Assembly: GCF_964213995.1 (NCBI RefSeq)
Contig: NC_135822.1
Span: forward strand, 39,246,001 to 39,310,000
From: Mustelus asterias
Lineage: Eukaryota
Direction: 5' to 3'
DNA length: 64,000 nucleotides
Of the stretch, positions 2,052-39,450 are shown in pieces. The notes below the pieces were generated by a model that worked only from the letters and a program-made list of their open reading frames with translations, was not told where the DNA came from and ran no database searches. Both the position numbers and the translations under genes were made by a program. The stretch's first letter is position 1. Each line of letters opens with the position of its first letter.

Positions 2052-2730
2052 ATCTGCAAATTTGCAAATTGCATTCTTTCATCTGCAAATTTGTCTGTAA
2101 TACATTCACTTCTTTCCCTCCAAGTCATTAATGTATATTGTAAACAGTTCCAGTCCCACACTGATCCCTGTGGAACCCCACTGGTTACAGGCCACCAACC
2201 TGAAAAATAACCCCTTATCCCCCATCTCTATCTATGCCAATGTACTATCTCCAACGCCATGGCCTTTTATCTCATGACTTACTCTTTTGTGAGGTACCTT
2301 GTCAAATCATTTCAGGGAGTCTAAATACAACACAGCTACTGCTTCCCTTCTATCCACTCAGGTTGAGACTTCCTCAAAAAAATTAATGAGACGTGATTTC
2401 CCTTTCATGAAGCCGTGCTGATTCTGCTTGATTAGATTGTGATTTTCCAAATGTGCCGCTATTCCGTCCTTGATAATTGATTCCATCATTTTTCTAACAG
2501 TAATGGTAGGCTAATCGGCCTATGCTTTTTGCCTCTTCTTTTGAATAGAGGTGTCACATTGGCAGTTTTCCAATCCTCTAGTACTTCTCCAGGATCCAAG
2601 GAATTTTGGAAAATTATAACCAATGCTGTCCAGTATCTCTGTCCCAATTCTTTGAGGATTCCAGGGATGCAAGCCATTGGGGCCAGAGACTTATCTGCAC
2701 CATTAATTTGTCTAATACTATTTCTCTAGT

Positions 2731-2912
2731 AAGTAGTCGCACAACACCAGGTTAAAGTCCAACAAGTTTATTCGGTAGCACGAGCTTTCGCTGATGAAGG
2801 AGCGGCGCTCCGAAAGCTCGTGCTACCAAATAAACCTGTTGGACTTTGACCTGGTGTTGTGAGACTACTTACTGTGCCCATCCCAGTCCAACGCCGGCAT
2901 CTCCACGTCATG
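2731..2912 (+). mobile_element. Penelope-derived hairpin element (pseudo-LTR plus inverted copy)
   Basis: Inverted arms; direct repeat actatttctctagt at 2717-2730 and 2913-2926; same ends as the 38526 copy. Confidence 0.8.
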
Positions 2913-3366
2913 ACTATTTCTCTAGTGATGGTGATTAATTCCTCCCTCGTATTCTTTAGTATTAACAGGATGTTTGAGGTATCTTCCACCGTAAAGACTG
3001 ATGCAAAATATCTGTTTAACTCCTCTGCCATTTCCTTGTTCCTCATGACTATCTCCCCAGATTCATTTTCACTGTCTCACCCTCCACATGTCATCTACCC
3101 TTAGCCAAACCCTCCAAAAGTCCCACTGTCTCCTCACCCAGCTTTCCCTACACTAGCCACCCATCAGCAAAACTATTTCATTCAAAATTCCCATCACAGG
3201 ACCATAGGAGCAGGAGTAAACCATTCAACCTACTGTGTCCAAGCCCAGTCAGTCCTCATGCCCATGTCTAGTCATGCAGTTCCAGGCAGGAGTGGCCGGG
3301 TAATAATTCTGGCTGCTGCCCATGACCACCACCAAGGCAATTATCATTGCTGTTTTGACAGACTGA

Positions 3367-3489
3367 TGTGGAGATGCCGGCGTTGGACTGGGGTAAGCAC
3401 AGGAAGAAGTCTCACAACACCAGGTTAAAGTCCAACTGCTACCAAATAAACCTGTTGGACTTTCACCTGGTGTTGTGAGACTTCTTACA
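3367..3489 (-). mobile_element. Penelope-derived hairpin element, internally deleted (hammerhead region lost)
   Basis: Same termini as the other copies; direct repeat ttgacagactga at 3355-3366 and 3490-3501. Confidence 0.75.
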
Positions 3490-4302
3490 TTGACAGACTG
3501 AGGCAGAGCAGTCAAGACATTGAGCCTGAGATTTTCCCTGTCTGCATGACTCAGCTGTAAAACACGTCCACATAACCAGATGTCCTGAAAAGTGCCACAT
3601 AAATTATTTCTCACATTTAGAAGTCTTTTCCTCCTTGATGGTTGGCAATGGTCTGACTGTATCTACATTGCAAGGCTGAGGGTAACAGCTCCAGAGCAAA
3701 ATTAAATTAAACATAAAAATTAGGGGAAGAGGCTGGAGCATATTAAGCTTGAGACTGTCTGTGTCCAATCCCTGGGTTTATCTGATGCTCGGCAACTTTC
3801 AACTTTGACTTAGTAAACTTGATGTTTCAGCCCTTGGCACGTGCGTCCCCTGGTGGCCAGTAAAATACTGCAGTTTGAACATATCCCTGCACTCATGTGA
3901 AATAACCCATTAACATTTGACTGCCTTTTACAGCTTTAGAAATGTGTTTTATTTTATCAAAGCACTTATAAACTGGCGCTTCAAAGGACTGCATGTTACC
4001 AAATGAGTTTGTTCCAGAGCAGCCATTTGATGCATGTCCATCACTGTTCTCAATAAGTGCAAGTTTGATGGAATAGGAGAGGGTTCTGACTGTTACATGG
4101 GATCTTCGTACAGTACGTTCCAGTCACTGAGCAAGAACACTGTTCCAGTAGTTGTGCTTGAAGTCTCAATGAAAGTTGGAGACAGTTGCTGTCCCAACAA
4201 TAACTTATATTGATGTAAACTTTACCGAAAAAGTTCTAAGTTGCTTCACATGAGCTTTATTGGACAAAACTGAAACCAAGTCACCCCGAAAGAGACATTA
4301 GC

Positions 4303-4627
4303 ATCATAGAATCCTACAGTGCAGAATGAGGCCATTCGGCCCATCAAGTCTGCACCGACCACAATCCCACCCAGGCTCTATCCCCACAGCCCCATGCATT
4401 TACCCTAGTTAGTCCCCCTGACACTAAGGGGCAATTTAGCATGGCCAATCCACCTAACCAGCACGTCTTTCAGACTGTGGGAGGAAATCGGAGCACCCGG
4501 AGGAAACCCACGCAGACACGGGGAGAACGTGCAAACTCCACACAGACAGTGACCCAAGCCGGGAATCGAACCTGGGCCCCTGGCGCTGTGAGGCAGCAGT
4601 GCTAACCACTGTGCCACCGTGCTGCCC
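4303..4627 (-). mobile_element. HE1/V-SINE-type SINE, CR1-type tail
   Basis: tRNA-like head (TGGCACAGTGG A box, GGTTCGATTCC B box), V-domain core, GATTCTAT tail. Confidence 0.9.
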
Positions 4628-5194
4628 CACAGTGAGGTGGCACAGTGGGAAAGGTGATAAATTGAAGTGCGCTGTGTGCGTGCTTTGATGGTAAACATTT
4701 CTGTTTTTGCCATTACTGAGGGAACAACTCGTAAATGAACATGATTGGTTCTCAGATTTGATGGCCTACTGACTCCGATAAAATCTGATTAGGTACTTTG
4801 GAAAGCATCGCAGCAAAATGTGCCTGGGGCCATTATGGTTGCTGTAAGTGCAAACCATTGCTCTGCCGAAAGGCTCAAAACCACAGCAATCCATGCTCAG
4901 AGTTGGGAGGCGTTTACATTTGATGGTGCCGTGATGTCCCTGTGCCAGGGAGCTGCCCTAACCATGAGTTTCGAGTTTATGTCTGCGAATCGTTGTCTGC
5001 TGAGCTACTCACCCTCACTGGGCCTTTCAAGGTTCGGGAAGGAGATTCTGAGCAGAAACGAGATACTTCCCCACAGGTCTTCGAGGTTCCTGGAGGGAAA
5101 TATACCGCCATTTTTCATTGCGGAATAGTGCAGGCAGAGGCAGGAAAACAGACTGTGCTATTCTCTCGACATTAAGTGGCATGTGAGCATAAGA

Positions 5195-5464
5195 AGGTAC
5201 ACAGCACCAGGTTAAAGTCCAACAGGTTTATTTGGCAGCACAAGCCACTAGCTTTCGGAGCGCTGCCCCTTCATCAGGTGAGTGGGATCTCTGCTCAGAA
5301 CAGAACAGCTCTGTTCTGAACAGAACTCCCAGTCACCTGATGAAGGGGCAGCGCTCCGAAAGCTAGTGGCTTGTGCTACCAAATAAACCTGTTGGACTTT
5401 AACCTGGTGTTGTGAGACTTCTTACTGTGTTTACCCCAGTCCAATGCCGGCATCTCCACATCAT
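5195..5464 (+). mobile_element. Penelope-derived hairpin element
   Basis: Inverted arms of about 110 bp around 5307; direct repeat agcataaga at 5186-5194 and 5465-5473. Confidence 0.8.
5332..5370 (+). ncRNA. Putative minimal type I hammerhead ribozyme (mirror copy on - strand at about 5244-5282)
   Basis: gucac-CUGAUGA-a-ggggc(agc)gcucc-GAAA-GCU-A-guggc: helix I, core, helix II, palindromic AGCU in place of helix III. Activity untested. Confidence 0.65.
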
Positions 5465-6020
5465 AGCATAAGATCAAAGACAGCATTTGAAATTGCCCTG
5501 CATGAAACGCCAGTCATAGTTGGCAAGTTTTTGCAAATCCCTTGCATGAAACCGCATGAATCTGTTGCTTTTCTAATCAAGCAAAGGGGAAAAGAAATTG
5601 CCAGTGCTGCTGTGGAAGTCGAGACTTTAGACAAAGCAGGGTTAGAGGTCGGAGATAATTGATGCACAAACGTTACTTCAGTACCTAATGTTTAGCTCTC
5701 TTACTGAAAATGGTAGATTTCCATTATAAATCTCAAAATCCACACTTACAATGCAAACTGTGCATCAACATGTCATGTTGCAGTTACATCTCCTCCTCCA
5801 GTGGAGGCACTGTTTATAGATAATTTTGTACTGTAATTACACTTTCACCCCACTGGAGGCACTGTTCATTGGCAGTTGCCATTATAACTTTGTGGACATA
5901 GGCATTTATAAAAAGTTGACAATTCACAGAAATGGAAGATGCTTCATATGTTATTGGTAGGTACAAATCTACCAACATAATGCTCTGTGTGACGTACATT
6001 ATTTTTTGTTTTTTTTCCAG

Positions 6021-6156
6021 GCCAAGGTTGAAAGGACAGATATCGGGACTCTCATTATCCCTTCAATCACTGTTGCCCAAGCTGGTATCTACCTGTGTGT
6101 GGGAACCAATGCTGCTGGCTCTTCAGAAGGTCGCATTGAAGTCTCGGTATTAGCCT
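6021..6156 (+). CDS. HSPG2: HSPG2 exon, C-terminal half of the Ig domain preceding the repeat block (AKVERTDIGTLIIPSITVAQAGIYLCVGTNAAGSSEGRIEVSVLA)
   Basis: ttttttccag acceptor; T|gtaggt donor; 136 nt, phase 0 to 1. Confidence 0.9.
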
Positions 6157-6913
6157 GTAGGTCTTGGTTTTGCAGAAGGATTAAATTTATTTGTAGTTGT
6201 TTGGTGGTATGGAACTTGAGTATTGCTGAAAGAAACTTTTCACCTTGTACTCATCAGGCACTTCCCAAAAATAACTTCGACATGTCTCTTTTTTCAACAA
6301 TACTCAAATTTATTTGTGCTGATGTTTAATGTTGTCGAACATTCAGTTTGCTCTTACTCTTGTGCCCAGCTATGAGCCTCAGTATGAATTACCCCTCCAG
6401 CCTCAAAGCCTTGACTTCAAAAGAAGCCATTTCAGATTTTTCCTACCTGAGGGAGGTTATTCTATTTCGACTCAGTCACAAGTAGCCTCGCAGGGACCTG
6501 CATCCTGGGCCTCCCAATCAGAGACGATCATGCAAAATCGATGGATCCAGTGAATCTGCCACGAGCCACAAACTGACAGACTGGCCAATTCTGTTCCCTG
6601 TCTGGGTGTATAGCTGAATCCCATTTCAACTGAAGGACAGCCAGAAATGTTTTAAATGCAGATATTGTGACGCAACCTGCATTCAGCCCATTGACTTTAT
6701 CTCAGAATTTTCCACTAGTGGGCTTGAGTCAGGTGTACAGAGTTTATTCCAACAGATGCCTCCGGAGTCAGTCAAGAACAGAGTGACACATGTTCATGTT
6801 TCTTTCCTATCCCCATGCAGTGGATTTTGTACTTATTAAAGAGTAACTTTGCCGAAAGCACAATCACTGCGTAAGGTGAAATAAAGTTGCCTTTTGCAGT
6901 TGTGATAATTTTG

Positions 6914-7128
6914 ATGGGGAGATGCCGGCGATGGACTGGGGTGGGCATAGTAAGAAGTCTCACAACACCAGGTTAAAGTCCAACAGTTTTATTTGGATTC
7001 ACGAGCTTTCGGAACACTGCTCCTTCATCAAGTGAGTCTCACCTGATGAAGGAGCAGTGCTCCGAAAGCTCATGATTCCAAATAAACCTGTTGAACTTTA
7101 ACAGGTGATGTGAGGCTTCTTACTGTGT
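6914..7128 (-). mobile_element. Penelope-derived hairpin element
   Basis: Arms about 6948-7036 and 7038-7125; flanked by taattttg direct repeat. Confidence 0.8.
7039..7075 (+). ncRNA. Putative minimal hammerhead ribozyme with a helix I mismatch
   Basis: ucac-CUGAUGA-a-ggagc(agu)gcucc-GAAA-GCU-C-auga. Confidence 0.5.
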
Positions 7129-7858
7129 TAATTTTGTAATATATGAAATGTTAATAAATGAAATAAATGTCCTTTCTTTTACCTGGTTTATCTTCAAAGC
7201 AGACATACTCCAAACTATCCCTATATTTTTAATTTCTGATTGGTCAATTTCTTATAGCAACTTCCCATTATAAATTCCGACATCACATTTATTAAAGGAA
7301 GCTGTCACGCTGTAATTAATCTTTCCCACTAGGGTTTTTTTTTCAGAACATTAACTGAAATCTGGGCTGTTGATTATTTGGAAATCTAAGATCCTGATTG
7401 ATGCTCTTACAGTTTAGAAAAGTTTAATAGAATTCAACCAAAAACATTTGATTAAAATGAGCTATCATATGCTGTTCATCTACTTCACCACAAACCTAAC
7501 CCCACAAATATTAAACAAACTTTGTACCATGATCAAAATGCTCATTTAGAAATTATCCACTGCTCTAAAAAGTATTTGTTTCTAAAATAAATATATCATT
7601 AAAATATGTTTACACTTGCACTGTCTTCTATAATTATGACCCATTTAATTTGCGGTATCTGCACTTAGGTGCCTGTATCATCTAGAAATTCCTTAGATCC
7701 GTCACACATTAAATTCCCTTTGAAGAATATTGGCTCTTGTGCAAGCAGTTTACCCGTGTGTTTTTCTCATCTTTTCTGCCTTTTGTTTTAGTTTTCAGAG
7801 AAAGTTTCCTTGTTCCGTGTTTTGATCTTTTTGTTTCTGGTGTCTACTCTCCCCACAG

Positions 7859-8010
7859 CAGAAGGATCTGCACCAGCAGCCAGAATTCAGCCCTCCCCAG
7901 CCTCAGTGACAGAGGGAGAAACACTGGAATTGTACTGCCATGTGACAGGGGAGCCTCGGCCCACGATCACATGGCGCAAGTCAAGTGGCCAACTAACCAC
8001 GAACCACCAG
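7859..8010 (+). CDS. HSPG2: HSPG2 Ig module 1, N-half exon (EGSAPAARIQPSPASVTEGETLELYCHVTGEPRPTITWRKSSGQLTTNHQ)
   Basis: ccccacag acceptor, CAG|gtatac donor, 152 nt, phase 1 to 0; Ig Cys and Trp present. Confidence 0.92.
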
Positions 8011-8084
8011 GTATACAATTGTAATTTCTGGCTTGGGAGCGGGATAGAGCAAAGGCATCCCAAGCTTTTCCCATTGAACTTTTT

Positions 8085-8205
8085 GATTTGATTTGATTTA
8101 TTATTGTCACATGTATTAGCATACAATGAAAAGTATTGTTTCTTGAGCGCTATACAAAGCATACCGTTCATAGAAAAGGAAAGGAGAGGGTGCAGAAGGT
8201 CGTGT
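8085..8205 (-). mobile_element. Rex1-like LINE 3' fragment (similar fragments at about 15250-15346 + and 57409-57494 -)
   Basis: Matches the 3' end of the 45698-46712 element: ...TGTGACAATAATAAATCAAATC. Confidence 0.75.
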
Positions 8206-8569
8206 TGAATAGAGCATTGTTAGAGAGCTTAAAAGAGTTAGAAGAAAGTTTTAAAAGCATAGAACGAGAGTAAAAGATAGAATTAAAGGGCATGCTGGGA
8301 ACAGCTTGCAAGAAGTCGCCTCGCTCCAGCGCCATATTGGATTAGTCTTCACGGAAGGGTTCTCTGTGTCCTCACCATGTTAATCTCTCAATCAGTATCA
8401 TTACCGCTGATGATCTTGCTTTTGTGGGAGCTTGCTGTGTGCAAATTGGCTGCACCATTTTTCGACAGTGGCACAGTGGTTAACACTGCTGCATCACAAC
8501 GCCAGGGACCCAGGTTTGATTCCCAGCTTGGGTCACTGTCAGTGCGGAGTCTGCACTTTACATTACAAC

Positions 8570-8775
8570 AGTAAGTAACAGTAAAGTCGCCATAGTCCCA
8601 GATGACCATAGGCACTGACTGGTGGTGATTTAACCTGAGCATCACCACACCTCAGGGGAGGAGCACTGTTGAGAAGGTGGGACCTTCATGAGTAACCTCA
8701 GCCAGTACAGAAATTGAACCCATGCTGTTGGCATCGCTCTGCATCACTAACCAGCCAACTGAGCCAAACCGGCCA
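8570..8775 (-). mobile_element. tRNA-derived SINE with GGGACTATGGCGACTTTAC tail, adjacent to an HE1 head fragment (8466-8556 +) within a Deu-SINE remnant
   Basis: Homologous to 43744-43961. Confidence 0.65.
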
Positions 8776-9172
8776 GTGCAACCATGTGGTACACCCACAG
8801 TGCTTTTCTGTGCAGCAGTTTTAATACAAGTGAGTTGTTTGCTATCAATTCGGAGGGTAGTCAAGAGTCAACCGCATGGCTGTAGACCTGGAGTCACGTG
8901 CAAGCCAGACCGGTTTAATATCCTTCAAGGGTATTAATGAACCAGATGGTTTATACAACACAGTAATTTTGTGATCATTATTAGCAAGTCATGTACTTTA
9001 TTCTGGAAGCTTTAAATAATTAATTGAATTCAAATTCCCTGGTGGGATTAGAACTCATGCCTCCGAAGCATTAGTTCTGGCCTCTGGATTGCCAGTCTAG
9101 TAACATATTACCATATGTAGTTGTTTCTCAGAAAGGGGTTCCATGGCTCTGATTTTGCTGTTGATTTTGTAG

Positions 9173-9302
9173 GTGCAGGGTCCCGTGTTACGCATCCAGC
9201 AAGCCACTGCTGCAGATGTTGGGAATTACATCTGCCATGTTGAAAACCAGCTTGGAATGCAAGAAGTTTCGGTCTCTGTGTCGGTCACCACCAGTGTTCA
9301 CC
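9173..9302 (+). CDS. HSPG2: HSPG2 Ig module 1, C-half exon (VQGPVLRIQQATAADVGNYICHVENQLGMQEVSVSVSVTTSVH)
   Basis: ttttgtag acceptor, C|gtacgt donor, 130 nt; DxGxYxC motif. Confidence 0.9.
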
Positions 9303-9384
9303 GTACGTAACCCTCTCATTCTTATTGGGTAGCAATGGGATATTTCTGCCCATTTGTTTTCTTAAGGATGATACAATGGTTGTT

Positions 9385-17163: not shown

Positions 17164-18220
17164 TGTGAAAGGGGGTCAGGTGACTGACTGTATTCTGCCT
17201 GACAACAAACTGAGGGGGCTTGGTTTCTATGGGGATAAGAGGAGCCCAAGTCAAGCGCCTTGCTCTGAAGGTGCAAGATGTTCACACCTGTAGACAATGG
17301 CAAGAGCATCTGGGCTGATTGTGGATTTACTGTTTGTCTCCAAGTCTCATTTAGATGTCAAGATTTATAAACTGTTGTATATTAAGCTATCTGGTAAATT
17401 CACAGGATTGAGTTGGGGGTCTAGAGGATGGCTAATCAGCATTTCTACCTGTATACAAGGCTCGTGTGATTCACATTGCCATGGTACATGGGCTTTTGGG
17501 AAGGGAACAGTCCATAGGAAGCCATTTGTATTATTGGGTTTCGGAGTCTCATGAGATAATACTTCACTTCTGGCCACGGTCACCCCAAGACCGGAGAAAC
17601 CCGCCCGAGGTCAACAGACCTTTGCATGGTCCGTGTCCCACCCGCTACGATTCCCATGGCGGCCAGGACAGGAAAATTCTGTCCATAGAGTCAGTCCTGC
17701 ACCCAAAGCAGAGAAAATGCTGACTAATAGTTACCATGTAGAATGTTGGTGGGAGCACGCACTCTGATTGAAGAAACTGAGTTTGTGAGGATTTGAAGGA
17801 GGCTGTAAGATTTGTCCAGTTCGGGCTAGGGTGGAGGAATCTTCACCGTAACCTTCTTGGTGGAAGTCAGTTCTGGAATTAAAAGTTATATAGCTAAGAA
17901 GGGAGAAGGAAGTTGGTTATTGAGAGACGAGAGCAACTTTGGACTGATTATGGGAGAATAAAGTGTTTACTTAAGGGACAGAGTGAACTGTAACCATATC
18001 AGGGAATTTTTGGTCATTTTAAGGGTTAAATGCGAAAACCTTTCTGTAGTTTAGCATAAAAGTTGTCTACAAAAAATAGTGTTCAGCCAATTTTGCTTTT
18101 TGTTCATTTGTTACAGTAGAACTCTTAAATGGTGAAATCTTATCGTTTGATCTTTTCAGTCAGTCACTGGAATTCAGATATCGTTTTTTAACGTTTTTGG
18201 TCCCTATGGAGACCATAAGA
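17164..18220 (+). mobile_element. Probable solo LTR containing a MITE (about 17565-17686); its 3' part is duplicated at 20806-21170
   Basis: Begins TGTGAA; the duplicate copy ends CCATAACA; no clear TSD. Confidence 0.35.
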
Positions 18221-18267
18221 GATTTAGACACTGTTGTATTGTAGGAGAGGAGAAGGATGAAGAAGAT

Positions 18268-18530
18268 TTTTTTATTCGTTCGTTGGACATGGGCAGACTA
18301 GCATTTATTGCCCATCCCTAGTTGCCCTTGGAGGGCAGTTGAGAGTCAACCACATTGCTGTGGCTCTGGAGTCACATGTAGGCCAGACCGGGTAAGGACG
18401 GCAGATTTCCTTCCCCAAAGGACATTGGTGAACCAGATGAGTTTTTTCTGACAATCAAAAATAGTTTTATGGTCATCAGTAGATTCTTAATTTCAGATAT
18501 TTTTGTATTAAATTCAAATTCCACCCGGAG
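18268..18530 (-). mobile_element. tRNA-headed SINE family (other copies at about 8860-9115, 21228-21490, 47545-47930, 59745-60080)
   Basis: Shared core gagtcacatgtaggccagacc...ttccttccctaaaggacatt; 3' end matches the LINE tail at 29345-29405. Confidence 0.7.
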
Positions 18531-19198
18531 CCCCAGAAATATCATTTAGTTTGGTTTTTCAAGTGAAGAATTTGTTGACTTCTGGGTTTAATCGAAAGCA
18601 GAAAGTTATTAAGTCCAGAAAATGTTCAAAGTATAATGTCTCTGATTGAAACCAGAAACTTGTGTGAATTCAGATGATTTTCACAGACAGTTATTGAAAC
18701 AACCCTGGTATATTTCAGAATTCCCTAAATTCTAGAACATGTATTGGAAGGTAGCAAATATAGCCAAACATGGAGAAAGAGAGAGAGCAGGGAATTATAG
18801 ACCAGTTAGCTTGATATGCTAGGATTTGCCTTTAAGAGCATGGAATAAGGCACTTGGAAAATCATGATTTGATTAGGCAAATGTGGCTTGGTTTTACAAA
18901 AGGGAATTCTGTTTGAGAAATCTGTTTGAGTTTGAATATGTAATTTGTGGCGTAGATAAGAAGGAATAGGTGGTTCTGGCACATTTGGATTTTCAAAAGG
19001 TGGTAACACAAGATGGGATCTCTGGGGTTGGGGTAATATATGAACAAGGGTTGAGGATTGGTTAATGAATAGAAAATCGAGAGTCGGAATAAACTTGATA
19101 TTTTTGAGCTAGCAGAGTGTAACTTGGGGCAATACCAGCGTTTGGCTCTCAACTGTTTACAGTCTAAAGCAATGACTGAATCCTCACTCTCCCCACAG

Positions 19199-19350
19199 TG
19201 CACGAATCTGCCCCAGCAGTGACGGTTCGACCCTCGCCAACCACAGTTAGGGAGGGAGAAATGGTGGAGTTGCACTGCCAGGTCACAGGTCAACCAGAAC
19301 CTAGGATCACATGGTATAGGGCAGCTGGCTCTCTAACAGCCAATCACCAG
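19199..19350 (+). CDS. HSPG2: HSPG2 Ig module 3, N-half exon (HESAPAVTVRPSPTTVREGEMVELHCQVTGQPEPRITWYRAAGSLTANHQ)
   Basis: ccccacag acceptor, CAG|gtaggt donor, 152 nt. Confidence 0.92.
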
Positions 19351-19523
19351 GTAGGTGACATCTTTCCAGTTTGGTTATCCTCCATTTCTTTCAACTTTCT
19401 AACTCTTGGAAGGACTGTTCATGGGGAATAGTTATCTGTCGCTCTGTGTATATTGGTGAGTGCTGAAAGCTGCCTTGGAGAGTGTGGGTAACAGAGGCTG
19501 TGATTTTCCTCTTGATGTTCTAG

Positions 19524-19650
19524 GTGGAGGGCGCTGTGCTACGCATCCTTCGTGTGAGTCCTGCCGATGTCGGGGATTACATCTGCCGCGCAGACAATGT
19601 CTATGGGGTGCAGGAGGTCAAATTCTCCGTCTTGGTCACTCCTTCCACGT
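19524..19650 (+). CDS. HSPG2: HSPG2 Ig module 3, C-half exon (VEGAVLRILRVSPADVGDYICRADNVYGVQEVKFSVLVTPST)
   Basis: gttctag acceptor, T|gtatgt donor, 127 nt. Confidence 0.92.
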
Positions 19651-20519
19651 GTATGTAACCCGTCAGTCTTACCGCATTCATTTGTGGCATCTTAGGTTTT
19701 ATTTGCTTTATCTTTCTGCTCATTTTTCAAAATGCTTGGGTTCCAAAGTATTTCTTTTATTTGAAAAGTGCACGGTGACTGCGGTAGTCTCCAGCTTTGG
19801 GAGAGAAGATTGTGTCGCCTTGTAACTGAGCAAATTCTGTGAGCTGAGGCTATTATTGAAAGGTGGTATTAACTTGCTATTGATAGGAAAAAAAATGTGA
19901 ATGAGGATTGCAAGTTTTACATTCCCAGACCCACTTTAATGAAGAATCGTTGAGTATAATCGTTGTGGGAGGACGAAGGGAATCAGCTGGTTCTCTCTCT
20001 CTAATCTCCCCGGATGTTTTGATTAGGCAACTGAAGTTATGAATGAGAAATATCTAATACAGGGTTTCCCAAATGTTGAGCAGGAGAACCCCTTGTGATC
20101 TCATTGGGCAACCCCAAGCATTCTCATAATGTTGACACCCCTTTTTTGGCCACAGCTTAGGAACGAGCAAAGAATAAAATCTAAACAAATCTTCTAGCTA
20201 TATCTATACATGTATTAGGAATTAGGAAGAGACACACAGTCGCAAATACATGTGCCAGCTACATGGCCCCCTCCCAACCCTTGGCCAAGCCACTCTCCCA
20301 TGGTCCCTTAACATTAACCCCAGGAAGTAGTTCCCACTTTAGGAGTGAGTAATCTGGTAATAATTAAAAAGTTGTATTTAAATATATTTAAATCTTACCC
20401 TATTGTCATTTTTAATTGCATGCTATATGCGAGAAAGATGATTCTCATATTGGAGGCAACCCACACCTTTCCCCCTCACACACAGATGCCCCTCTTTCCC
20501 GCGTGCACTTGACCTTCTC

Positions 20520-20716: not shown

Positions 20717-22147
20717 GTATTTCATTGGCTATAAACTGATTTGGAACATTCTGAAGTTATGAAAGGTGCTATCTCAATATGGGCTTAGATTCTCCAGCCT
20801 CTCAGCGTAACCTTCTTGTGAAAGTCAGTTCTGGAATTAGAAGTTATCCAGCTGAGAAGGAAAAAGGAAGTTGGTCATAGGGAGAGGAGAGCAACTTTGG
20901 ACTGATTCTGGGAGAATGAAGTATTTACTTAAGGGACAGAGTGAGCTATCATCACATCAGGGAATTTTTGGTCATTTTAAGAGTTAAATGCGAAAACCTT
21001 TCTGTAGTTTAGCGTAAAAGTTGTCAAAAAAAGTGTTCAGCCAGTTTTGCTTTGAGTTTATTTGTTACAGTAGAACTCTTAAATCGTGAAATCTTGTCGT
21101 TTGATCTTTTCAGTCACTGGAGTTCAAATATCTTTATAAAATGTTTTTGTTCCCTATGGAGACCATAACAAGAGATTTAGATACTGTTGTATTGCAGGCG
21201 AGGATAAGGATGTAGAAGATGTTTTTTTAATTCATTCGTTGGACATGGGTGTCGCTGGCTGGCCAGCATTTATTGCCCGTCCGTAGTTGCCCAACGGAAG
21301 TTGAGAGTCTACCACATTGCTGTGGCTCTGGAGTCATACATAGGCCAGACCGGGTAAGAAGGGCACCTTCCCTTCCCTAAAGGACATTAGCGAATCAGAT
21401 GAGTTTTTTCCGACAATCAAAAATGGTTTTATGGTCATCAGTAGATTCTTAATTTCAGACATTTTTGTATTGAATTCAAATTCCACCCGGGGCCCCAGAA
21501 ATATCATTTAGTTTGGTTTTTCAAGTGAAGAATTTGTTGACTTCTGGGTTTAATCGAAAGCAGAAACTTATTAAGTCCAGAAAATGTTCAAAGTATAATG
21601 TCTTTGATTGAAACCAGAAACTTGTGTGAATTCAGATGATTTTCACAGACAGTTATTGAAACAACTCTGGTATATTTCGGAATTCCCTAAATTCTAGAAC
21701 ATGTATTGGAAGGTAGCAAATATAGCCAAACATGGAGAAAGAGAGAGAGCAGGGAATTATAGACCAGTTAGCTTGATATGCTAGGATTTGCCTTTAAGAG
21801 CATGGAATAAAGCACTTGGAAAATCATGATTTGATTAGGCAAATGTGGCTTGGTTTTACAAAAGGGAATTCTGTTTGAGTTTGAATATGTAATTCGTGGC
21901 ATAGATAAGAAGGAACAGGTGGTTCTGGCACATTTGGATTTTCAAAAGGTGGTAACACAAGATGGGATCTATGGGGTTGGGGTAATATATGAACAAGGAT
22001 TGAGGATTGGTTAATGAATAGAAAATCGAGAGTCGGAATAAACTTGATATTTTTGAACTAGCAGAGTGTAACTCGGGGCAAAACCAGCGTTTGGCTCTCA
22101 ACTGTTTACAGTCTAAAGCAATGACTGAATCCTCACTCTCCCCACAG

Positions 22148-22299
22148 TGCACGAATCTGCCCCAGCAGTGACGGTTCGACCCTCGCCAACCACAGTTAGG
22201 GAGGGAGAAATGGTGGAGTTGCACTGCCAGGTCACAGGTCAACCAGAACCTAGGATCACATGGTATAGGGCAGCTGGCTCTCTAACAGCCAATCACCAG
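22148..22299 (+). CDS. HSPG2: HSPG2 Ig module 4, N-half exon (nucleotide-identical to module 3 N-half)
   Basis: ccccacag acceptor, CAG|gtaggt donor, 152 nt. Confidence 0.9.
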
Positions 22300-22490
22300 G
22301 TAGGTGACATCTTCCCAGTTTGGCTATCCTCCATTTCCTTTCTGTTTCTCTTTACCTTCAACTTTTTAACTCTTGGAAGGACTGTTCATGGGGAATAGTT
22401 ATCTGTCGCTCTGTGTATATTGGTGAATGCTGAAAGCTGCCTCGGAGAGTGTGGGTAACAGAGGCTGTGATTTTCCTCTTGATGTTCTAG

Positions 22491-22617
22491 GTGGAGGGCG
22501 CTGTGCTACGCATCCTTCGTGTGAGTCCTGCCGATGTCGGGGATTACATCTGCCGCGCAGACAATCGCTATGGGATGCAGGAGGTCAAATTCTCCGTCTT
22601 GGTCACTCCTTCCACGT
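22491..22617 (+). CDS. HSPG2: HSPG2 Ig module 4, C-half exon (VEGAVLRILRVSPADVGDYICRADNRYGMQEVKFSVLVTPST)
   Basis: gttctag acceptor, T|gtatgt donor, 127 nt. Confidence 0.9.
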
Positions 22618-22954
22618 GTATGTAACCCGTCAGTCTTACCGCATTCATTTGTGGCATCTTTCTTAGGATTTATTTGCTTTATCCTTCTGCTCATTTTTCA
22701 AAATGCTTGGGTTCCAAAGTATTTCTTTTATTTGAAAAGTGCACGGTGACTGCGGTAGTCTCCAGCTTTGGGAGAGAAGATTGTGTCGCCTTATAACTGA
22801 GCAAATTCTGTGAGCTGAGGCTATTATTGAAAGGTGGTATTAACTTGTTATTGATAGGAGAGAAAATGTGAATGAGGATTGCAAGTTTTACATTCCCAGA
22901 CCCACCTTAATGAAGAATCGATGAGTATAATCGTTGTGGGAGGACGAGGGGAAT

Positions 22955-30656: not shown

Positions 30657-31557
30657 AATATGTCCTGTCACTGTCTAGAACCTTTTCACAAGGATCCCTA
30701 TGTCCCTGCTCACTCTTTTGAAGTATGCCGTTAAGTCTGTATTGTCTTTCTCTGTCCTTTCTGTCAAAATAAATCACCGCACACTTCTCTGCATTAAATT
30801 CTATCTGCTACTTGTCTGGCCATTCTGCTAGCCTATCTATATTCTATTGCAGTCAATGTGTATCATTTTCACTGTTTGCAATGCTTCCACATTTTGTAAC
30901 CTCAGCAAATTTTGAAATGTTATTCTATTCCAATATCTAAGCCATCTATATATTTATATATATATAATATCAGACAACTGACCAATGGAGAACACCACTA
31001 CCCATCTCCATCAACAACACGGAGCCCTGGCTTTGGTTCCCCCTTTCATCCTCGTTAGAATGTACCTAACCTGTAGCTGAAACCTCTCCTCATTAAAGAT
31101 CACCCTCTGTTCCATTGCAGTTTCTCTGTTTATGTCTTTGTCCCCATTTTAACCTGGCTAGGTCCCTTCTCATCTCATTGAAGTTAGTTCGCTTCCACTT
31201 TAGAAGTTCCACATTAAGTTGTGCCTCTCTGTTCTGCTTTATTCATCTAAAACTTACGCTGTGATGATGACTCTTGCCCAGTAAGAATGAATCCAAAGCG
31301 GGTGATCTGTTAAATTGTCACTTGCTGCAAGAATTCACGAGAGAAGATTCTGCTAACATGCTGCTGCTCAGAGAAGGTTCCAGGGTCCGTAGTCTTGATG
31401 TAATTTAGCCGGGGACCGTTGCCAGGTTTTGGGCTCCGAATGAATACACTTCAGGAATGGATGTTGTACAAAAACAATAAGTGAAATCTGGGTCAAAATG
31501 TCCCAAAGTTGTCTCATCATGAGGGAGCCAGTTCAAAGTTAGAAGATCCAATGGATT

Positions 31558-31881
31558 GAATCATAGAATCACAGAATCCCTACAGTGCAGAAGGAGGCCA
31601 TTCGGCCGATCAAGTCTGCACCAACCACAATCCCACCCAGGCCCTATCCCCACAACCCATGCACTTACCCTGGTCAGTCCCCCTGACACTAAGGGGCAAT
31701 TTATCATGTCCAATCCACCTAACCCACACATCTTTGGACTGTGGGAGGAAACTGGAGCACCGGGAGGAAACCCACGCAGACACGGGGAGAACATGCAAAC
31801 TGCACGCAGACAGTAACCCAAGCCAGGAATTGAGCCGGCTCCCTGGCGCTATGAAGCAGCAGTGCTAATCACTGTGCCACC
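31558..31881 (-). mobile_element. HE1/V-SINE-type SINE, CR1-type tail
   Basis: Near full-length match to the other copies. Confidence 0.9.
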
Positions 31882-32765
31882 TGGGGAGATGCTAAATACT
31901 TTCTGGAAAAGTGAATGTGGTAACTACAAGCCCACCAATCATAAGGAAAGGTTTGAATGCGTTCTCAATCCTGAAAGGAAGTGAGTCTTATGCAAAGTGT
32001 ATAATAGCAAGTTCAGTAAGAAATACTAATCTTAAGCACTCTTTGACGTTAAGCCTGACTTCACAGCAAGAATCAAAGGCAAGCGCAGAATATAAGGAAG
32101 CACTTTAACCTGGTGAACTTTCACCTCTTACTCACCCGCCTCAACAGCAAGATGCACCGTAAGCAGCAGAATGAATGCTGGCCCTCCCCCTGCCTATATT
32201 TCAACATCATCTGATCACAAACATCCCTGCCCCCCAACCCTGATGAAGTTAGGTAGCTTACGCACTGCCCCACAAACATAGGACATCCTGATCAGGTCCA
32301 GAATTATGGGTTGAAATGGTTTTAGAAAACAGCAAAATGAATATATTTAAGAAGGCGCGAGGAGTTTGATGGATGAAGATAAAATTTGGATGGTGGCAGT
32401 TGTTTGGAAGGACCATCATTCAATAATGGCAGTGCAGCAATTTACCCAGTCCAGCACTGAAATATCAGCTTAGTTTGTGCTCTGCTCTGGTAAAGTTCCT
32501 AATCTCGGCTCAGGTTCAGAGACTAGGCATATACCAATTGAGCAATGCCAATGCAGTCAGTCAAATTGAATTCTCTTCACACAAAGAGTTCTGTCCAATA
32601 CGTTACGCTAGATGGTAAAGGATGAACAGTCAATTTAAACATTGGCACAAGCTATTAAAGGGAACTTCCAGGCAAGGAACAAACCTGGAGCTCAATAAAT
32701 GACGATGTCGGTATCGTTTGCTTTGTGATCTATTTGCCTCACTCTTGTCTCCACTCTTCCCACAG

Positions 32766-32914
32766 CAAGGAACGCACCGACAGTGCTGACATACCCCTCC
32801 CCTCTCTCTGTAAGAGAGGGAGAAATGCTAGAATTACACTGCCAGGTCACAGGTCAACCGCAACCCAGGATCACATGGCACAGAGCTGCTGGTTCTCTAA
32901 CTACCAATCACCAG
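32766..32914 (+). CDS. HSPG2: HSPG2 Ig module 6, N-half exon (RNAPTVLTYPSPLSVREGEMLELHCQVTGQPQPRITWHRAAGSLTTNHQ)
   Basis: cccacag acceptor, CAG|gtgggt donor, 149 nt (one codon shorter than the other N-halves). Confidence 0.9.
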
Positions 32915-33348
32915 GTGGGTGAAGGCCGTGGAACAACCCTCAATTTGATGGGAAATAATTTTATTTGAATGTAAGTGCGTGACCTGAGGTTCGGGTGGTG
33001 GGCCGATCAGATCGAACTTGCCCTGAGAGTGGCATGTCAGCTTCCAGTGATGATGGCAGTCACTCTTTGAATGTGGCTCAACCTCACCGTTCGCTGCTGC
33101 CTCCTGACCTGCCTGTTCGTTCCCTCTCTCTCAGCAGATGCACTATGCCCCGTGTTTCATTGCTTGTTGAATTAGGCTCAACTTCATTTCAAATAATGGA
33201 GGTAAACTGGTTAAAGAAAATGAGCTGATTACACAGCCCATGGGAGGTCAACTTGGCTGACAAACTAAGCAGCTGGTCTCACTCAGTCAGGATGACCATA
33301 CATCTTCCGTTTTTCTTGATTTTTCTTGCCAGGTTTCTGAGCTCCTTC

Positions 33349-33657
33349 TTAAAGTTTAAAGTTTATTTATTAGTGTCACAAGTAGGCTTACATTAACACT
33401 GCAATGAAGTTACTGTGAAAATCCCCGAGTCGCCACACTCCGTCGCCTGTTCGGGTAACACTGACGGAGAATTTAACATGGCCAATGCACCCTAACCACC
33501 ACATCTTTCAGACTGTAAGAGGAAACCAGAGCACCCGGAGGAATCCCACACAGACATGGGGAGACCGTGCAGACTCCGCACAGACAGTGACCCAAGCAGG
33601 GAATCGAACCCGGCTCCCTGGCGCTGTGAGGCAACAGTGCTAACCCACTGTGCCACC
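33349..33657 (-). mobile_element. HE1/V-SINE-type SINE, second tail type
   Basis: Near full-length match to the other copies. Confidence 0.9.
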
Positions 33658-33751
33658 TTCTGAAGTGTCCGTGAGAAAAAGGTACAACAAAACTAACTGA
33701 GGAAGTGGACGACATCCAGAGGCTCCTTATTGCAAACTGTCAAGTTTCGAG

Positions 33752-34301
33752 GGGGGGCACAGTGGTTACCACTTCTGCCCCTCAGAGCCAGGGGCCCGGG
33801 TTCAATTCCCGGCTTGGGTCACTGTCTGTGCGGAGTCTGTATGTTCTCCCCATGTATGCGTGGGTTTCCTCCGGGTGCTCTGGTTTCCTCCCACACTCCA
33901 AAGATGTGCAGGTTGGATGGATTGGCCATGCTAAATTGCCCCTTAGTGTCCCAAGCTCATAGAATCCCTACAAGTACAGAAGGACACCATTTGGCCCATC
34001 GAGTCTGTACCAAGCGTAATCCCACCCAGGCCCTATTCCTGTAACCCCACACATTTACCCTGCTAACCCCCCTGACACTCGGGTCAATTTAGCATGGCCA
34101 AACGACCTAACCCACACATCTTTGGAGTGTGGGAGGAAACCGGAGCACCCGGAGGAAACGGTGTGTGTGGGTTAAATGGATTACCCAGGGTAAATGCATA
34201 GGGTCACTGGTTAGAGCTGGGGGGGATAGGGCCCAGTTAAGATGCTCTTTCCAGGAGTTTGTGCAGATTTGATGGGCCTTCTGAACTGTAGGGATTCTAT
34301 G
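33752..34301 (+). mobile_element. HE1/V-SINE-type SINE interrupted by a truncated antisense SINE (about 33957-34159)
   Basis: Head and core to 33955, inverted tail fragment, then resumption of the + copy tail. Confidence 0.8.
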
Positions 34302-34671
34302 GATAGTTTTCACTGGAATGGGTCTCTTGTTCAATGTAATCTGGCTGAAATTGGCTGTTTTAAAACTGACCAAGGACCTTGTGCTCGCTGCATAACGTAC
34401 CACTTCAGATGAATCTGCTGAGTAAACATTGGAGCAGATGGAATCAGGTTATGCTGGAGATGCAAACCTTTATTTGCTCTCATTAGTCACTGGATGGTTG
34501 TCAGAAATGGGGACCCAGCCTGGGTTATCTTGATTTTTATTCCTCATTCAGAGAGGTGCACAAGCAATTGTCAGCCCTTACTCTTCATGTCTTATAGTAA
34601 TCAGTAGATTCGTGAATGCTGAAAGGAGTGTGTGGGTAACAGAGGCTGTGATTTTCTTCTTGATGTTCTAG

Positions 34672-34798
34672 GTGCAGGGCGCTGTGCTACGCATCAACCG
34701 CGTGAGCCCTGCCGATGTCGGGGATTATATCTGCCGTGCAGATAATCGCTATGGGATGCAGGAGGTCAAATTCTCCGTTTCAGTCACTCCTTCCGCAT
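34672..34798 (+). CDS. HSPG2: HSPG2 Ig module 6, C-half exon (VQGAVLRINRVSPADVGDYICRADNRYGMQEVKFSVSVTPSA)
   Basis: gttctag acceptor, T|gtatgt donor, 127 nt. Confidence 0.92.
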
Positions 34799-35244
34799 GT
34801 ATGTAACCTGTTATTCTTATAGTACTTGTTAGCACATCTTTTATTCTCTTTATTTCTGTTTGCTTTACTCTTCAACACAGTTTAAATCCAGAGATCCAAA
34901 GATTTCTTGTACTGTTAGAAAAGTGTTCTGCAACATCAGTCGACACTAACTGGGAAAGAAATCTTATAAATGAAAATTTGTTATAATCTGAGACTATTGC
35001 TGAAATCTTGCTGCCATTCACACCAGCGGGATCTCACGGTCCCACCAATGGCACATCCGCCAGTTTCCCAGTGGCAAGGGGTGCATTCAACGGGAAACCC
35101 AATTGACCATAGTGAGACCATCAGATTCCACTGCCAGTGAGTGGCATGCCGCCTTCTGCCGCTGTGAAACACCCCGCAAAGAGGGAGAAAAAGTCCACCC
35201 TACATTCTTCCTGGGCACGCCAGATGTTCCCCCCAAGCTGAGGA

Positions 35245-35548
35245 GTCTAGAACCAGGGGACACAGTCTCAGAACAAGGGGAAGGCCATTTAGGACTGGGT
35301 TGAGATGGAATTTCTTCACTCAGAAGATGGTGAACCTTTGGATTCTCCATCCCAGAGGGCTGTGGATGCTCGATCATTGAGTATGTTGAAGGCACAGATT
35401 TGTGAATACAAATGACATCAAAGGGATGAGGGAATAGTGGGAAAAATAGTGTTGATGTAAATGATCAGCCATGCCCTGTTTGAATGGCAGAGCATGCTCG
35501 ATGGGCCAAATGGCTTAGCCATGCTCTTATTCCCTGTGTTTCTATTCA
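35245..35548 (+). mobile_element. CR1 3' end fragment
   Basis: aatttcttcactcagaag...gatcagccatg 3' UTR pattern. Confidence 0.7.
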
Positions 35549-35988
35549 CAGAGGATGGGACCAATAATGTAGAACCAGCATTGAAAGAGGGTAAAATGTT
35601 TTGGAGGTTCACGAGTTCAATGTTTCAGTCCTACCTAAAGAACAGAATCCATAAACACAATCACTGAGTATAAATCAACTGCTCCTATGCCACAAAAATC
35701 CCTGAGGAGTAAAGATTGCTGATATGTATTATTAAAGGATACTTCTGAACTGGGATTAATTTGGTCATCTGAAGGGCCAAGAAAATTGGAAGAAGGATGA
35801 GGAGATCATGCAGAGAAGTATCTCGTTGTGATTGGGGATGAGGCAGGAGAAGCAAAACGAGAGAACGTTCACCCATGTTGGGCACCAAGAAACAACTTTG
35901 TGATTCCACAAGTAACAGCCCTCAGTGTTTGTGTACTTTCCAACTGTTTGCTTTGTTAAAAACATCTCTTCTGGTCTCCTCCCCACAG

Positions 35989-36140
35989 CGCAAGGAACTG
36001 CCCCAACTGCAAAGATTTATCCCTCGTCCACCTCAGTCACCGAGGGAGAAATGCTGGAGTTACGCTGCCAGGTCACAGGTCAACCGGAACCCAGGGTCAC
36101 ATGGTCCAGGCCGGCTGGTTCTCTAACTGCCAATCACCAG
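35989..36140 (+). CDS. HSPG2: HSPG2 Ig module 7, N-half exon (QGTAPTAKIYPSSTSVTEGEMLELRCQVTGQPEPRVTWSRPAGSLTANHQ)
   Basis: ccccacag acceptor, CAG|gtaggt donor, 152 nt. Confidence 0.92.
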
Positions 36141-36957
36141 GTAGGTGGAAGTGATGGGACAATGCCGGATTTTCCTTTGGTGGGGAATTATGTAGACACA
36201 ATTGAGCGTGTGATGTAAAATGTAGCCTGTCTCTGTGTGGGGAAGGAATGGCATTTCCACAGAAATACCAAAAAGGTACGTCCATTCAAAATGCCCCAAC
36301 TCCCAAGCGGCACCAAATGATGATTCCTTAGGCTTCGGCAGTTGTTGTTTTGGAGGGTGTTTCTCTTAGAAAAGGAGGCATTTTTAGCTGGTTGGCCTCA
36401 ATCTGAGATGTGAATGGCTGAGTAACTGCAATGTTGGAAGGTTTTTCTGATGCACCCAATCACTACATGCTATGCTTTGTGGACCTGGCCAGGGTGACAT
36501 TTGGCGCGACTGCCAGGTTGCTATCTATCTGGAACCGAGTGGAACCCAGCTTCTCTTGTTCCAGGAGAACAGGGAAACCAAAACAGTGACGCACCATTTC
36601 CTGCAAGGATGCTTCCATCATTCTTACAAATAGAGAGCTTGTGGTCCCACACAGTAACACTGACCTGTAGCCTGAAACTTGGCTTGCACTCTCCAATGGG
36701 CATGCAACAATACTGACTGACCTATGAGATGGTTCCCTTGACCACTTCTCGGAGAAACTCTCCTTCTGCGTGGCTGATGTAGCACGACCTTGAGTTCTGT
36801 GGTCATCAGACGTGGAGTTGGAGTTCCAGTAAGGTGTGACTTGTCAGTTGCTCCAGCCTCTACCTGGGGTTCTTTAACCCTTTTCTTTTTATCTGGTAAT
36901 TCCTAATCCTCCTCCACCACAGCTTTGAGGGACATGATTCTCCGGCCTCCCAGCCAC

Positions 36958-37147
36958 ATCATAGAATCATAGAAACCCTACAGTGCAGAAGGAGGCCATT
37001 CGGCCCATCGAGTCTGCACCGACCACAATCCCACCCAGGCCCTACCCCCACATATTTTACCTGCTAATCCCTCGAACCTACGCATCCCAGGACTCTAAGG
37101 GGCAATTTTTAACCTGGCCAATCAACCTAACCCGCACATCTTTGGAC
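36958..37147 (-). mobile_element. HE1/V-SINE-type SINE 3' fragment
   Basis: CR1-type tail. Confidence 0.8.
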
Positions 37148-37822
37148 ATGTTTTCCTCTGGCCGGAGCCAACGCATTGTTTGCTAGTGGCGGGATTCTCT
37201 GGTCCCGGTGCTATCAATGGGAATTCCTATTGTCATCACGCCATGCCGGTATGAAACCCTGGGGAGGGTGCTGGGGGGCGGGGGGGGGGGGGGGGGGGGG
37301 GTGCGCTGCCACGGGATGGAGAATCCGGCCAGTGTGAACAGCCAGGGAATTCCTGCTGAGATTTCTTTATTGGTGCTTTAATAGATTTCTGAATTTAGTC
37401 CCACTCCTGTGAAACCCATTATGACATTTCCCTTTCATCCTCTTCCCTCTAATCCTCCCTCCATCTCTTCCCACTAACCTTCACTCCATCTCATGGCATC
37501 TTCCCTCTTACCTCTGGTATTATCCCTGGACCCTTTCAAGTTTGTATCTGGAGTTATAAATTGTTATTTCAATAATCTTAAGAGAAGACAATTAAATTTA
37601 TTTTAAATAGAGAAATAATATAAGGACTAAGGTGTTTAGCCCCTTGAGCCTGCACTTGAGATTCAGGTGTACCGGGAAGCAGAGCATAAATCATTACACC
37701 TGAAGATAAATACCAGCCCTTACCTCTCCTGAGTGGTGAGAGTGTGTTGTAATTATCAGTATGTTTGTAAATGCTGAAAGCTGCCGGGGAGAGTGAGAGT
37801 GAATTTCCTGTTGATGCTCCAG

Positions 37823-37952
37823 GTGCAGGGTCACGTGCTACGCATCCTTCGCATGAAACCCGCCGATGTCGGAGATTACATCTGCCGCGCGCAAAACGTC
37901 GTTGGAACACGGGAAGTCAAGTTCTCCGTCTCTCTCGCTGCCACTCCATCCA
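37823..37952 (+). CDS. HSPG2: HSPG2 Ig module 7, C-half exon (VQGHVLRILRMKPADVGDYICRAQNVVGTREVKFSVSLAATPS)
   Basis: gctccag acceptor, A|gtatgt donor, 130 nt. Confidence 0.92.
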
Positions 37953-38525
37953 GTATGTAACTCAGTCATTCCGGTTCTGTCTCTTCTATATTTTCCACCC
38001 TCTTTTAATCCTATCGCTGTTACTGCTGGCTTTCAGTTTGGAACCAAAAGATTTCATGTGCTGTTTAAGAAAATTTTCATCGTCGGTTCATGCACCTAGG
38101 AAGACCGAAAGCACGCAGGAGCACAAGTCTAACATTAATGCCAACTGCATTCAGAGCCATCCAATTTTGTGAAAGACCTAAAAATAGCTCCTTATTTGCA
38201 AATGAAGAGGGACTAATGTTCTTTGTGGGCATGGGCCCCAGACAACATTCCCGCCAACCTTTTTGGATTGTGTGGGAAGTTAAATAAGTGTGCAACATTT
38301 TAAAGGTCTTTGTACAGACGCAGACAAGCGGTAACTTGAAAGGGCCGACTTATGTGCAGCCTTTCTGGCGACGTTCAGGTTGCTGCACATTGGTGCATAC
38401 AGCTGACAGTAAACACTGATCCTAAACACCTCCTTCCCAACCAACATGATAGACGTGAACATGCCATCACGTTCTGGCACGTGATGAATATGTACATGCT
38501 GGAAGCTCTGTTGGATTCTTAGGCA

Positions 38526-39184
38526 TGATGTGGAGATGCCGGCGTTGGACTGGGGTGGGCACAGTAAGAAGTCTCACAACACCAGGTTAAAGTCCAACAG
38601 GTTTATTTGGCAGCACTAGCTTTCGAAGTCTCAAGCTCCTTCTTCAGGTGAGTGAGGACTTGTGTTCACAAGCAGGGCATATAAAGAAACAAACTCAATT
38701 TATAAGATAATGGTTGGAATGCGAGTCTTTACAGGTAATCAAGTCTTAAAGATACAGACAATGTGAGTGGAAAGAGGGTTAAGCACAGGTTAAAGAGATG
38801 TGTATTGTCTCCAACCAGGACAGTTAGTGAGATTTTGCAAGCCCAGGCAAGTCGTGGGGGTTACAGATAATGTGACATGAACCCAAGATCCCGGTTGAAG
38901 CCATCCTCATGTGTGTGGAAATTGGCTATCAGTCTCTGCTCAGCGATTCTGAGTTGTGTGTCGTGAAGGCTGTCTTGGAGAATGCTTACCCGAAGATCAG
39001 AGGCTGAATGCCCATGACTGCTGAAGTGTTCCCCGACTGTCTTGTAAATTGAGTTTGTTTCTTTATATGCCTTGTTTGTGAACACAAGTCCTCACTCACC
39101 TGAAGAAGGAGCTTGAGGCTCCGAAAGCTAGTGCTGCCAAATAAACCTGTTGGACTTTAACTTGGTGTTAGCATGGCTTCTTAC
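38526..39184 (-). mobile_element. Penelope-like retroelement, 5'-truncated and inverted, with C-terminal GIY-YIG endonuclease remnant
   Basis: VGEHFSSHGHSASDLRVSIL...AEQRLI...GFNRDLGFMSHY resembles vertebrate PLE endonuclease C-termini; inverted arms about 38564-38707 and 39040-39184; 12-bp TSD gattcttaggca (38514-38525 and 39185-39196). Confidence 0.88.
39096..39134 (+). ncRNA. Putative minimal hammerhead ribozyme in the inverted arm of the Penelope element
   Basis: cac-CUGAAGA-a-ggagc(uugag)gcucc-GAAA-GCU-A-gug. Confidence 0.55.
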
Positions 39185-39450
39185 GATTCTTAGGCACCAT
39201 GAGGGAAACATGATTACACCATTATCAAATTTCTAAAGCCCAGTGCTTGTTTTCAAATGGTGAAGAGAGAATATTCACTCCACATCACTTTTCAAAATGA
39301 AGATATTGCTGAAAGATGTAGAGAAAGGCAGATTTGTGTTAACATAGTGCTTTATTTAATCTCTTGGAGTGTCTCAAATTGTTCTCTGAATTGTAGATAT
39401 TCAGTCAACCTAGCAACCAACGAAACAGGAGCAGACCATTCAGCCATAAA

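Follow-up and report, generated by a model that had tools for sequence, protein, structure and literature searches.

Head-to-head hairpin stubs of a Penelope-like element, several with minimal hammerhead ribozymes, in perlecan introns of Mustelus asterias

In L1 retrotransposons, twin priming, in which both target strands prime complementary DNA (cDNA), results in a 5′ inversion inside one target-site duplication (TSD). Endonuclease-positive (EN+) Penelope-like elements (PLEs), including Pen2a_Av, are described in the accessible parts of PMC8557442 and PMC3846280 as insertions with an inverted 5′-truncated copy and a 30–40 bp tail, and PMC3846280 favors self-priming as the source of the inverted copy. 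Minimal hammerhead ribozymes (min-HHRs) occur in pairs on opposite strands, 100–700 bp apart, and show low activity, seen only as dimers, according to the available sections of PMC4209133. The protein of the PLE Poseidon_Ac cuts and extends both target strands in vitro, as presented in the accessible part of PMC11167929. Here, we describe five PLE hairpins in a 64,000-nucleotide stretch of the Mustelus asterias genome (contig NC_135822.1, forward-strand positions 39,246,001 to 39,310,000; hereafter the window), which lie in introns of the perlecan gene. The hairpins are very probably dead 5′-truncated head-to-head insertions of an abundant autonomous PLE, each likely made de novo from both cut target strands priming on the element RNA.

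Each hairpin is composed of a tail arm, which reaches the constant end of the family, and an inverted short arm. The positions of all five copies, and of the 8–14 bp direct repeats that flank them, agree with those given in the first-pass annotation of this DNA (window coordinates):

Copy 1, 2731..2912, + strand: short inverted arm, ending at about 2790, followed by a + strand tail arm that begins at the hammerhead core; 14-bp TSD at 2717..2730 (left) and 2913-2926 (right).
Copy 2, 3367..3489, − strand: tail arm (−) and short arm (+), each with its truncation point 3′ of the ribozyme; 12-bp TSD at 3355..3366 (left) and 3490-3501 (right).
Copy 3, 5195..5464, + strand: symmetric hairpin with the tail arm on + and a self-folding filler at its center (about 5301-5313); 9-bp TSD at 5186..5194 (left) and 5465-5473 (right).
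Copy 4, 6914..7128, − strand: symmetric hairpin with the tail arm on − and a recurrent hot-spot junction; 8-bp TSD at 6906..6913 (left) and 7129-7136 (right).
Copy 5, 38526..39184, − strand: a long tail arm occupies 38526-39032 on −, and a short arm begins at about 39042 on +; 12-bp TSD at 38514..38525 (left) and 39185-39196 (right).

An upstream immunoglobulin (Ig) exon about 8.5 kb before the window, together with + strand Ig exons within it, places all five copies in introns. The constant end is the start codon of the open reading frame (ORF) of the element, and the tail of copy 1 continues into this ATG at 2910-2912.

The parent of the hairpins encodes a reverse transcriptase (RT) and a GIY-YIG endonuclease, in agreement with the Penelope origin proposed in the first-pass annotation. 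The link that the annotation drew between copy 5 and an endonuclease is also sustained:

38864..39037, − strand: remnant of the GIY-YIG region, corresponding to the C-terminal 58 amino acids (aa) of locus L043's ORF for RT plus GIY-YIG, with 88% identity.

The L043 ORF matches RVT_1 (E=7e-12) and GIY-YIG (E=0.0016, below the curated Pfam cut-off), and contains the motifs YIDD and VYLIRC..YIGET. The linker between RT and endonuclease is of the CX2-5CxxC type (CHSNRCKTC, CX4CxxC, at aa 350 in L043), and its CX4CxxC form points to a Neptune/Nematis-type EN+ PLE. Assignment to the Poseidon clade was dropped on the linker evidence. The ORF is preceded by a partial-tandem pseudo-long terminal repeat (pLTR), as the constant end is followed by the ATG and the same N-terminus in 10 of the 29 loci holding the 5′ part of the ORF. 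In locus L203, the RT frame is open for 672 aa up to the locus end. Seven loci of one subfamily are 98–100% identical, and therefore the element was active recently. A single 29-mer of the family has 171,007 exact matches in the genome. One hundred evenly spaced 10-kb stretches contain 69 insertion clusters (95% interval 53–86), which equals 69 per Mb and extrapolates to about 250,000 insertions.

Of the 85 clusters from the random stretches and the surroundings of perlecan, 40 are simple hairpins, another 35 consist of a single arm, and the remaining 10 are complex arrangements. The inverted arm had been described as stopping about 40 nucleotides (nt) short of the constant end, and this geometry is general: in 38 of the 40 hairpins the tail end lies at template positions 2738-2745, at the start codon, and the other arm ends about 30–40 nt earlier (about 35 nt), with both arms pointing outward. 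The combination of a tail arm, a one-sided 30–40 bp tail, and an inverted 5′-truncated copy likewise occurs in 38/40. TSDs are 8–16 bp long, with a mode of 12. Microhomology of 1–6 nt between target and template is present at both hairpin ends. It measures 1.67 nt at the tail end compared to 0.81 nt under the null (0/5000 simulations; n=30/33, with three junctions unplaceable) and 1.37 nt compared to 0.70 nt at the short end (10/5000 simulations; n=27/33, with six unplaceable), both nulls being two-sided. The partner arms of a hairpin belong to one subfamily, with a median distance of 0.032 within and 0.137 between insertions (14 pairs), and the partner is the nearest arm in 10 of the 14. The short arm is longer in 15 of 38 hairpins, the tail arm in 6, and the two are equal in 17. 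The arm-length pattern, the shared subfamily, and the microhomology at both ends favor a model in which the two cut strands prime on a single RNA.

We propose that the element endonuclease makes a staggered cut in the target, and that each target 3′ end would pair by 1–6 nt with the element RNA at one of two template sites about 35 nt apart. Two short cDNAs, one per cut strand, would then be joined at the center, often at self-complementary motifs, and fold-back may complete the symmetric hairpins. The hammerhead would be carried along as a passenger from the pLTR. In loci L146:5312-5581, L118:6158-6437, and L267, part of the tail and the first codons of the ORF occupy the hairpin center; the template RNA therefore continued beyond the start site and into the ORF. 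A hint of target preference comes from several insertions that lie within other repeats at target sequences resembling one another (loci of the L054:1161, L067, L088, and L153 type, and also L163, L241, and L242). One of these groups sits in an RT-coding stretch resembling a long interspersed nuclear element.

The four + strand hammerhead cores of the form CUGA(U/A)GA-A-helix II-GAAA-GCU(A/C) reported in the first-pass annotation are present at 2791, 5337, 7043, and 39100, and two more intact cores, beyond the earlier list, are located on the − strand at 5277 and 38647:

2791..2819, + strand: core and helix II of copy 1; helix I has no 5′ strand, and the motif is predicted to be inactive in cis.
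5333..5369, + strand: intact minimal hammerhead of copy 3, core 5337-5365; predicted to be masked in the full hairpin.
5249..5277, − strand: second intact core of copy 3, in the antisense arm.
7043-7071, + strand: core of copy 4, with a C·A mismatch in helix I.
39100..39130, + strand: core of copy 5, with a 3-bp proximal helix I; predicted to be masked.
38617-38647, − strand: partner core of copy 5.

Helix I is good at 5332, short at 39096, mismatched at 7039, and lost at 2791, as had been claimed, and the cut is correctly predicted after A5365. The 6-bp helix I at 5332 depends on a C-to-G change that the partner arm and most compared arms lack. In the − strand core of copy 4, C3 is changed to U, and a pattern scan of the window found no core in copy 2. 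Core and helices are intact in both arms of copies 3 and 5, and in neither arm of copies 1, 2, and 4. In antisense, helix I together with CUG gives CAG/GTGAGT, which resembles a consensus 5′ splice site, on the + strand at 5275 and 38645, and is altered at 7029. Every long antisense arm places this donor-like motif on the host sense strand.

The assignment to minimal type I hammerheads with a palindromic AGCU helix III is borne out by the conserved core, the G10.1-C11.1 pair, the extra nucleotide after A9, the palindromic helix III, and the NUH cleavage site. An Rfam scan returned nine matches at E≤5, none of a hammerhead family, and the hammerhead call is made from pattern and covariation evidence, not from an Rfam match. 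The parser, which is itself biased to conserved cores, classed 145 of 175 arms as intact. N7 and H17 differ between subfamilies, but the core is otherwise constant. Covariation in helices I and II, which had been suggested as a check, is present: in 49 hand-picked arms, 99% and 98% of the helix I and helix II cells, respectively, are paired, with swaps between CG and UA (30:8) and between GC and AU (43:5). Two-sided cells number 36 compared to 11.9 after shuffling, and the count of pairs with a change (143/500) is not significant. Since the core is kept while helices I and II covary between subfamilies, the ribozyme is selected in the master elements, in line with PMC4209133.

The first-pass annotation had viewed the hairpin as a self-masking ribozyme cassette. 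As a selected function this view is not supported, since the core is mostly not spared after insertion. Changes in core and flank number 15/473 and 68/2097 in one comparison (p=1.0; 43/49 arm pairs) and 8/416 and 64/2084 in another (p=0.26), and eight core changes were observed compared to 10.6 expected (p=0.53; 60/96 arms). These tests are family-wide, not per locus; one subset gave p=0.014, four others p=0.26–1.0, and the separate test of expected changes p=0.53. The masking itself is reproduced by folding when both arms cover the ribozyme. In the models, helix II probability drops from 0.41 for the ribozyme alone to 0.00 in the full hairpin of copy 3, and from 0.74 to 0.00 in copy 5; it is also 0.00 when the RNA ends 16 nt past the cut. 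As the arms are head-to-head, the antisense arm is transcribed first in any transcript, and the ribozyme in perlecan pre-mRNA is therefore predicted to be inert. In a cofold of two copy-3 ribozymes, the hammerhead dimer was not the minimum-energy fold, a result of little weight, since the motif depends on tertiary contacts. The expectation that an insertion in either direction places a hammerhead on the sense strand holds for only 10/40 hairpins, which have an intact ribozyme on both strands; 11/40 have one on a single strand and 19/40 have none. Because so few hairpins are intact on both strands, masking reads as a by-product.

The junctions of one young subfamily contain a footprint at the predicted cut. 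We counted 1,148 arms starting exactly at the cut compared to 343 starting two bases upstream; the odds of the two patterns are near-equal (0.41 and 0.44), and some control arms are partners of cut-start arms. A partner arm extends beyond the cut at 0/26 cut-start and 5/24 control loci (p=0.02; first 30 loci per list). By extrapolation, cut-start arms make up about 4% of the subfamily, and none of the five window copies begins at the cut. The pile-up is suggestive of the hammerhead acting on the RNA of its own element, and judging from these junctions it probably cleaves a few percent of the RNAs that serve as template. A polymerase stop at the structured ribozyme, or a hot spot of annealing, could instead cause the pile-up without cleavage; this is rather unlikely, and would leave the hammerhead as a structural signal only. 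Other hot spots are indeed present near helix I and at palindromes, including a mild accumulation of arm starts immediately 5′ of helix I, at 33–37 nt upstream of the cut (16/96 arms, about five of them from missing templates). Metazoan min-HHRs cleave poorly in vitro, as stated in the accessible part of PMC4209133, and catalysis was dispensable for Anolis insertion in vitro in the experiments presented in the available part of PMC11167929. However, the arms begin precisely at the first nucleotide that follows H17, in 26/26 loci the two arms both stay short of passing the cut, and the NUH rule is kept, with G at H17 in only 3/175 arms.

Several observations weigh against the explanation favored here. 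In a random sample of 96 arms, none has its start between −1 and +2 relative to the cut, where about 0.8 would be expected from the 18 arms of that subfamily, and the footprint covers one subfamily and one control position. An unbiased subset of non-CpG sites has changes at 0/144 core compared to 25/721 other positions (p=0.014; 15/20 pairs). The likeness of partner arms could partly stem from later gene conversion. Finally, the 17/38 near-symmetric hairpins, several of which contain self-folding filler, fit fold-back self-priming equally well.

Fold-back self-priming of one cDNA, or an antisense template, would produce the same dead stubs without priming from both strands. The near-symmetric centers, their palindromic fillers, and the recurrence of palindromic junctions all suit such an origin, which has been proposed for rotifer PLEs in the part of PMC3846280 available. 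Nevertheless, we regard it as quite improbable for the family as a whole. In 15/38 hairpins the short arm extends beyond the tail arm on the 5′ side, so that it is not always a fold-back copy of the latter, and template microhomology is present at both target ends. The Anolis protein, moreover, acts on both strands (PMC11167929, accessible part). Priming from both cut strands thus remains our preferred explanation of the inverted arm.

The first-pass annotation suggested a self-propagating non-autonomous unit of 120–270 bp, and noted that centers differing between copies would make the hairpins independent inversions. The latter was found: the 40 sampled hairpins span 99–1,778 bp without a single repeated junction pair. 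Among them we found neither a shared unit length or internal junction nor tandem units each with a ribozyme, as would be expected of a non-autonomous family or a retrozyme. Copies 1 and 3 each have a junction found at a single place in the genome; the junction of copy 2 has ten matches (≤1 mismatch), and that of copy 4 recurs 66 times. Ten loci of the copy-4 type come from several subfamilies; seven of them have the tail on the left and three on the right. A palindromic junction centered on GAATTC occurs at 192 places; six or more variants of helix II, belonging to different autonomous subfamilies, are present among the 8/8 loci read, and about 1,917 hairpins are centered within 12 nt of helix I. 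Because the recurrent centers span autonomous subfamilies and either tail side, they are hot spots and not a clone. A short unit propagating as such and carrying a purposely self-masked ribozyme into host introns is therefore highly improbable: the recurring centers, the crowding near helix I, the predicted masking, and the one positive conservation subset speak for it; against it stand the unique junctions of two window copies, the 19/40 hairpins lacking an intact ribozyme, the larger tests without core sparing, the changed G in CpG context (8/78), and the insertion density in perlecan, which is not raised (16 clusters in 264 kb around the window compared to the 69 in the evenly spaced stretches). 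A short head-to-tail, retrozyme-like arrangement was observed at L127:5683-5851, where the tail is joined at the ATG to a second copy that begins just upstream of the ribozyme.

The host exons encode Ig half-domains on the + strand. The best named matches of exon 60440-60625 are perlecans, at about 56–74% identity; a PDB search with a host exon returned generic Ig proteins only. The exon nearest to the hairpins, from which copies 1–4 are seen to be intronic, is:

6021..6150, + strand: perlecan Ig half-domain exon, 3′ end approximate.

Among ten local hairpins, six are on + and four on −, a sample without power to detect an orientation bias. Perlecan domain IV is apparently expanded by numerous Ig repeats that are almost the same in sequence, located between 7800 and 47200, and a two-exon Ig unit is tandemly duplicated over 2.1 kb (17843-19983 and 20802-22954, 92.5% identity). 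A tRNA-derived repeat resembling a short interspersed nuclear element is located at 39756-39976 and ends in about six repeats of a 35-bp unit; its family has more than 20 copies in the window.

The five copies themselves probably have little effect on perlecan. The family constitutes a natural data set on how PLEs finish insertion and on whether weak hammerheads cut in vivo, both of which are countable from genomic junctions; in vivo cutting is not visible in the RNA data of the one biochemical study, in the part of PMC11167929 available. We also considered a bolder reading, which we hold to be unlikely: that the min-HHR truly cuts the element RNA in the germ line, that a quarter-million stubs record the cut and the two-strand priming, and that the antisense-first geometry is a safety catch for intronic ribozymes. 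If so, exposed sense-strand ribozymes would be depleted from introns and masked ones tolerated. Within the open-access literature (subscription papers, Repbase, and Dfam being outside the scope), we found no paper on point for a cut-site footprint or for twin priming in PLEs.

Unlike in L1 twin priming, the proposed priming sites here are fixed and internal, and the same stretch would be copied twice into a long perfect hairpin. The inverted copy, the tail, and the paired hammerheads on opposite strands are already in print; added here are the microhomology of 1–6 nt at both ends, the arms of one subfamily, and the cut-start excess of 1,148 over 343. The following comparisons refer to the accessible parts of the cited reports. 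The element resembles EN+ Neptune/Nematis PLEs in its RT with C-terminal GIY-YIG, CX2-5CxxC linker, and partial tandem pLTR-ORF arrangement (PMC8557442, PMC3846280), and in its inverted arm shorter by about 35 nt, one-sided tail, 8–16 bp TSD, and palindromes at the inversion junction. It differs from them in consisting mostly of ORF-less stubs of 100–300 bp, in its very high copy number, and in a tail that ends at the start codon itself. The ribozyme shares with metazoan PLE min-HHRs the extra nucleotide between A9 and G10.1, the G10.1-C11.1 pair, the palindromic 15.2-16.2, and a short helix I (PMC4209133). However, its helix II has 5–6 bp instead of 7–8, partial covariation suggests a distal helix I, and its genomic copies contain a cut-site footprint, which the sections of PMC4209133 available do not describe. 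In common with Poseidon_Ac of Anolis (PMC11167929), the element has a tail delimited by two internal sites of RT initiation, and a hammerhead in the pLTR. That element belongs to a different clade; its ORF begins inside the ribozyme, whereas here the ATG lies about 100 nt after the cut, and its initiation is reported 111–118 nt into the ORF, with no target homology and no cut-site RNA ends seen in the data presented there. Animal non-LTR retrozymes (bioRxiv 10.64898/2026.07.22.740005) are likewise non-coding PLE-derived units with type I hammerheads, but form head-to-tail tandems with a ribozyme per unit, whereas the insertions described here are solitary head-to-head hairpins with individual centers.

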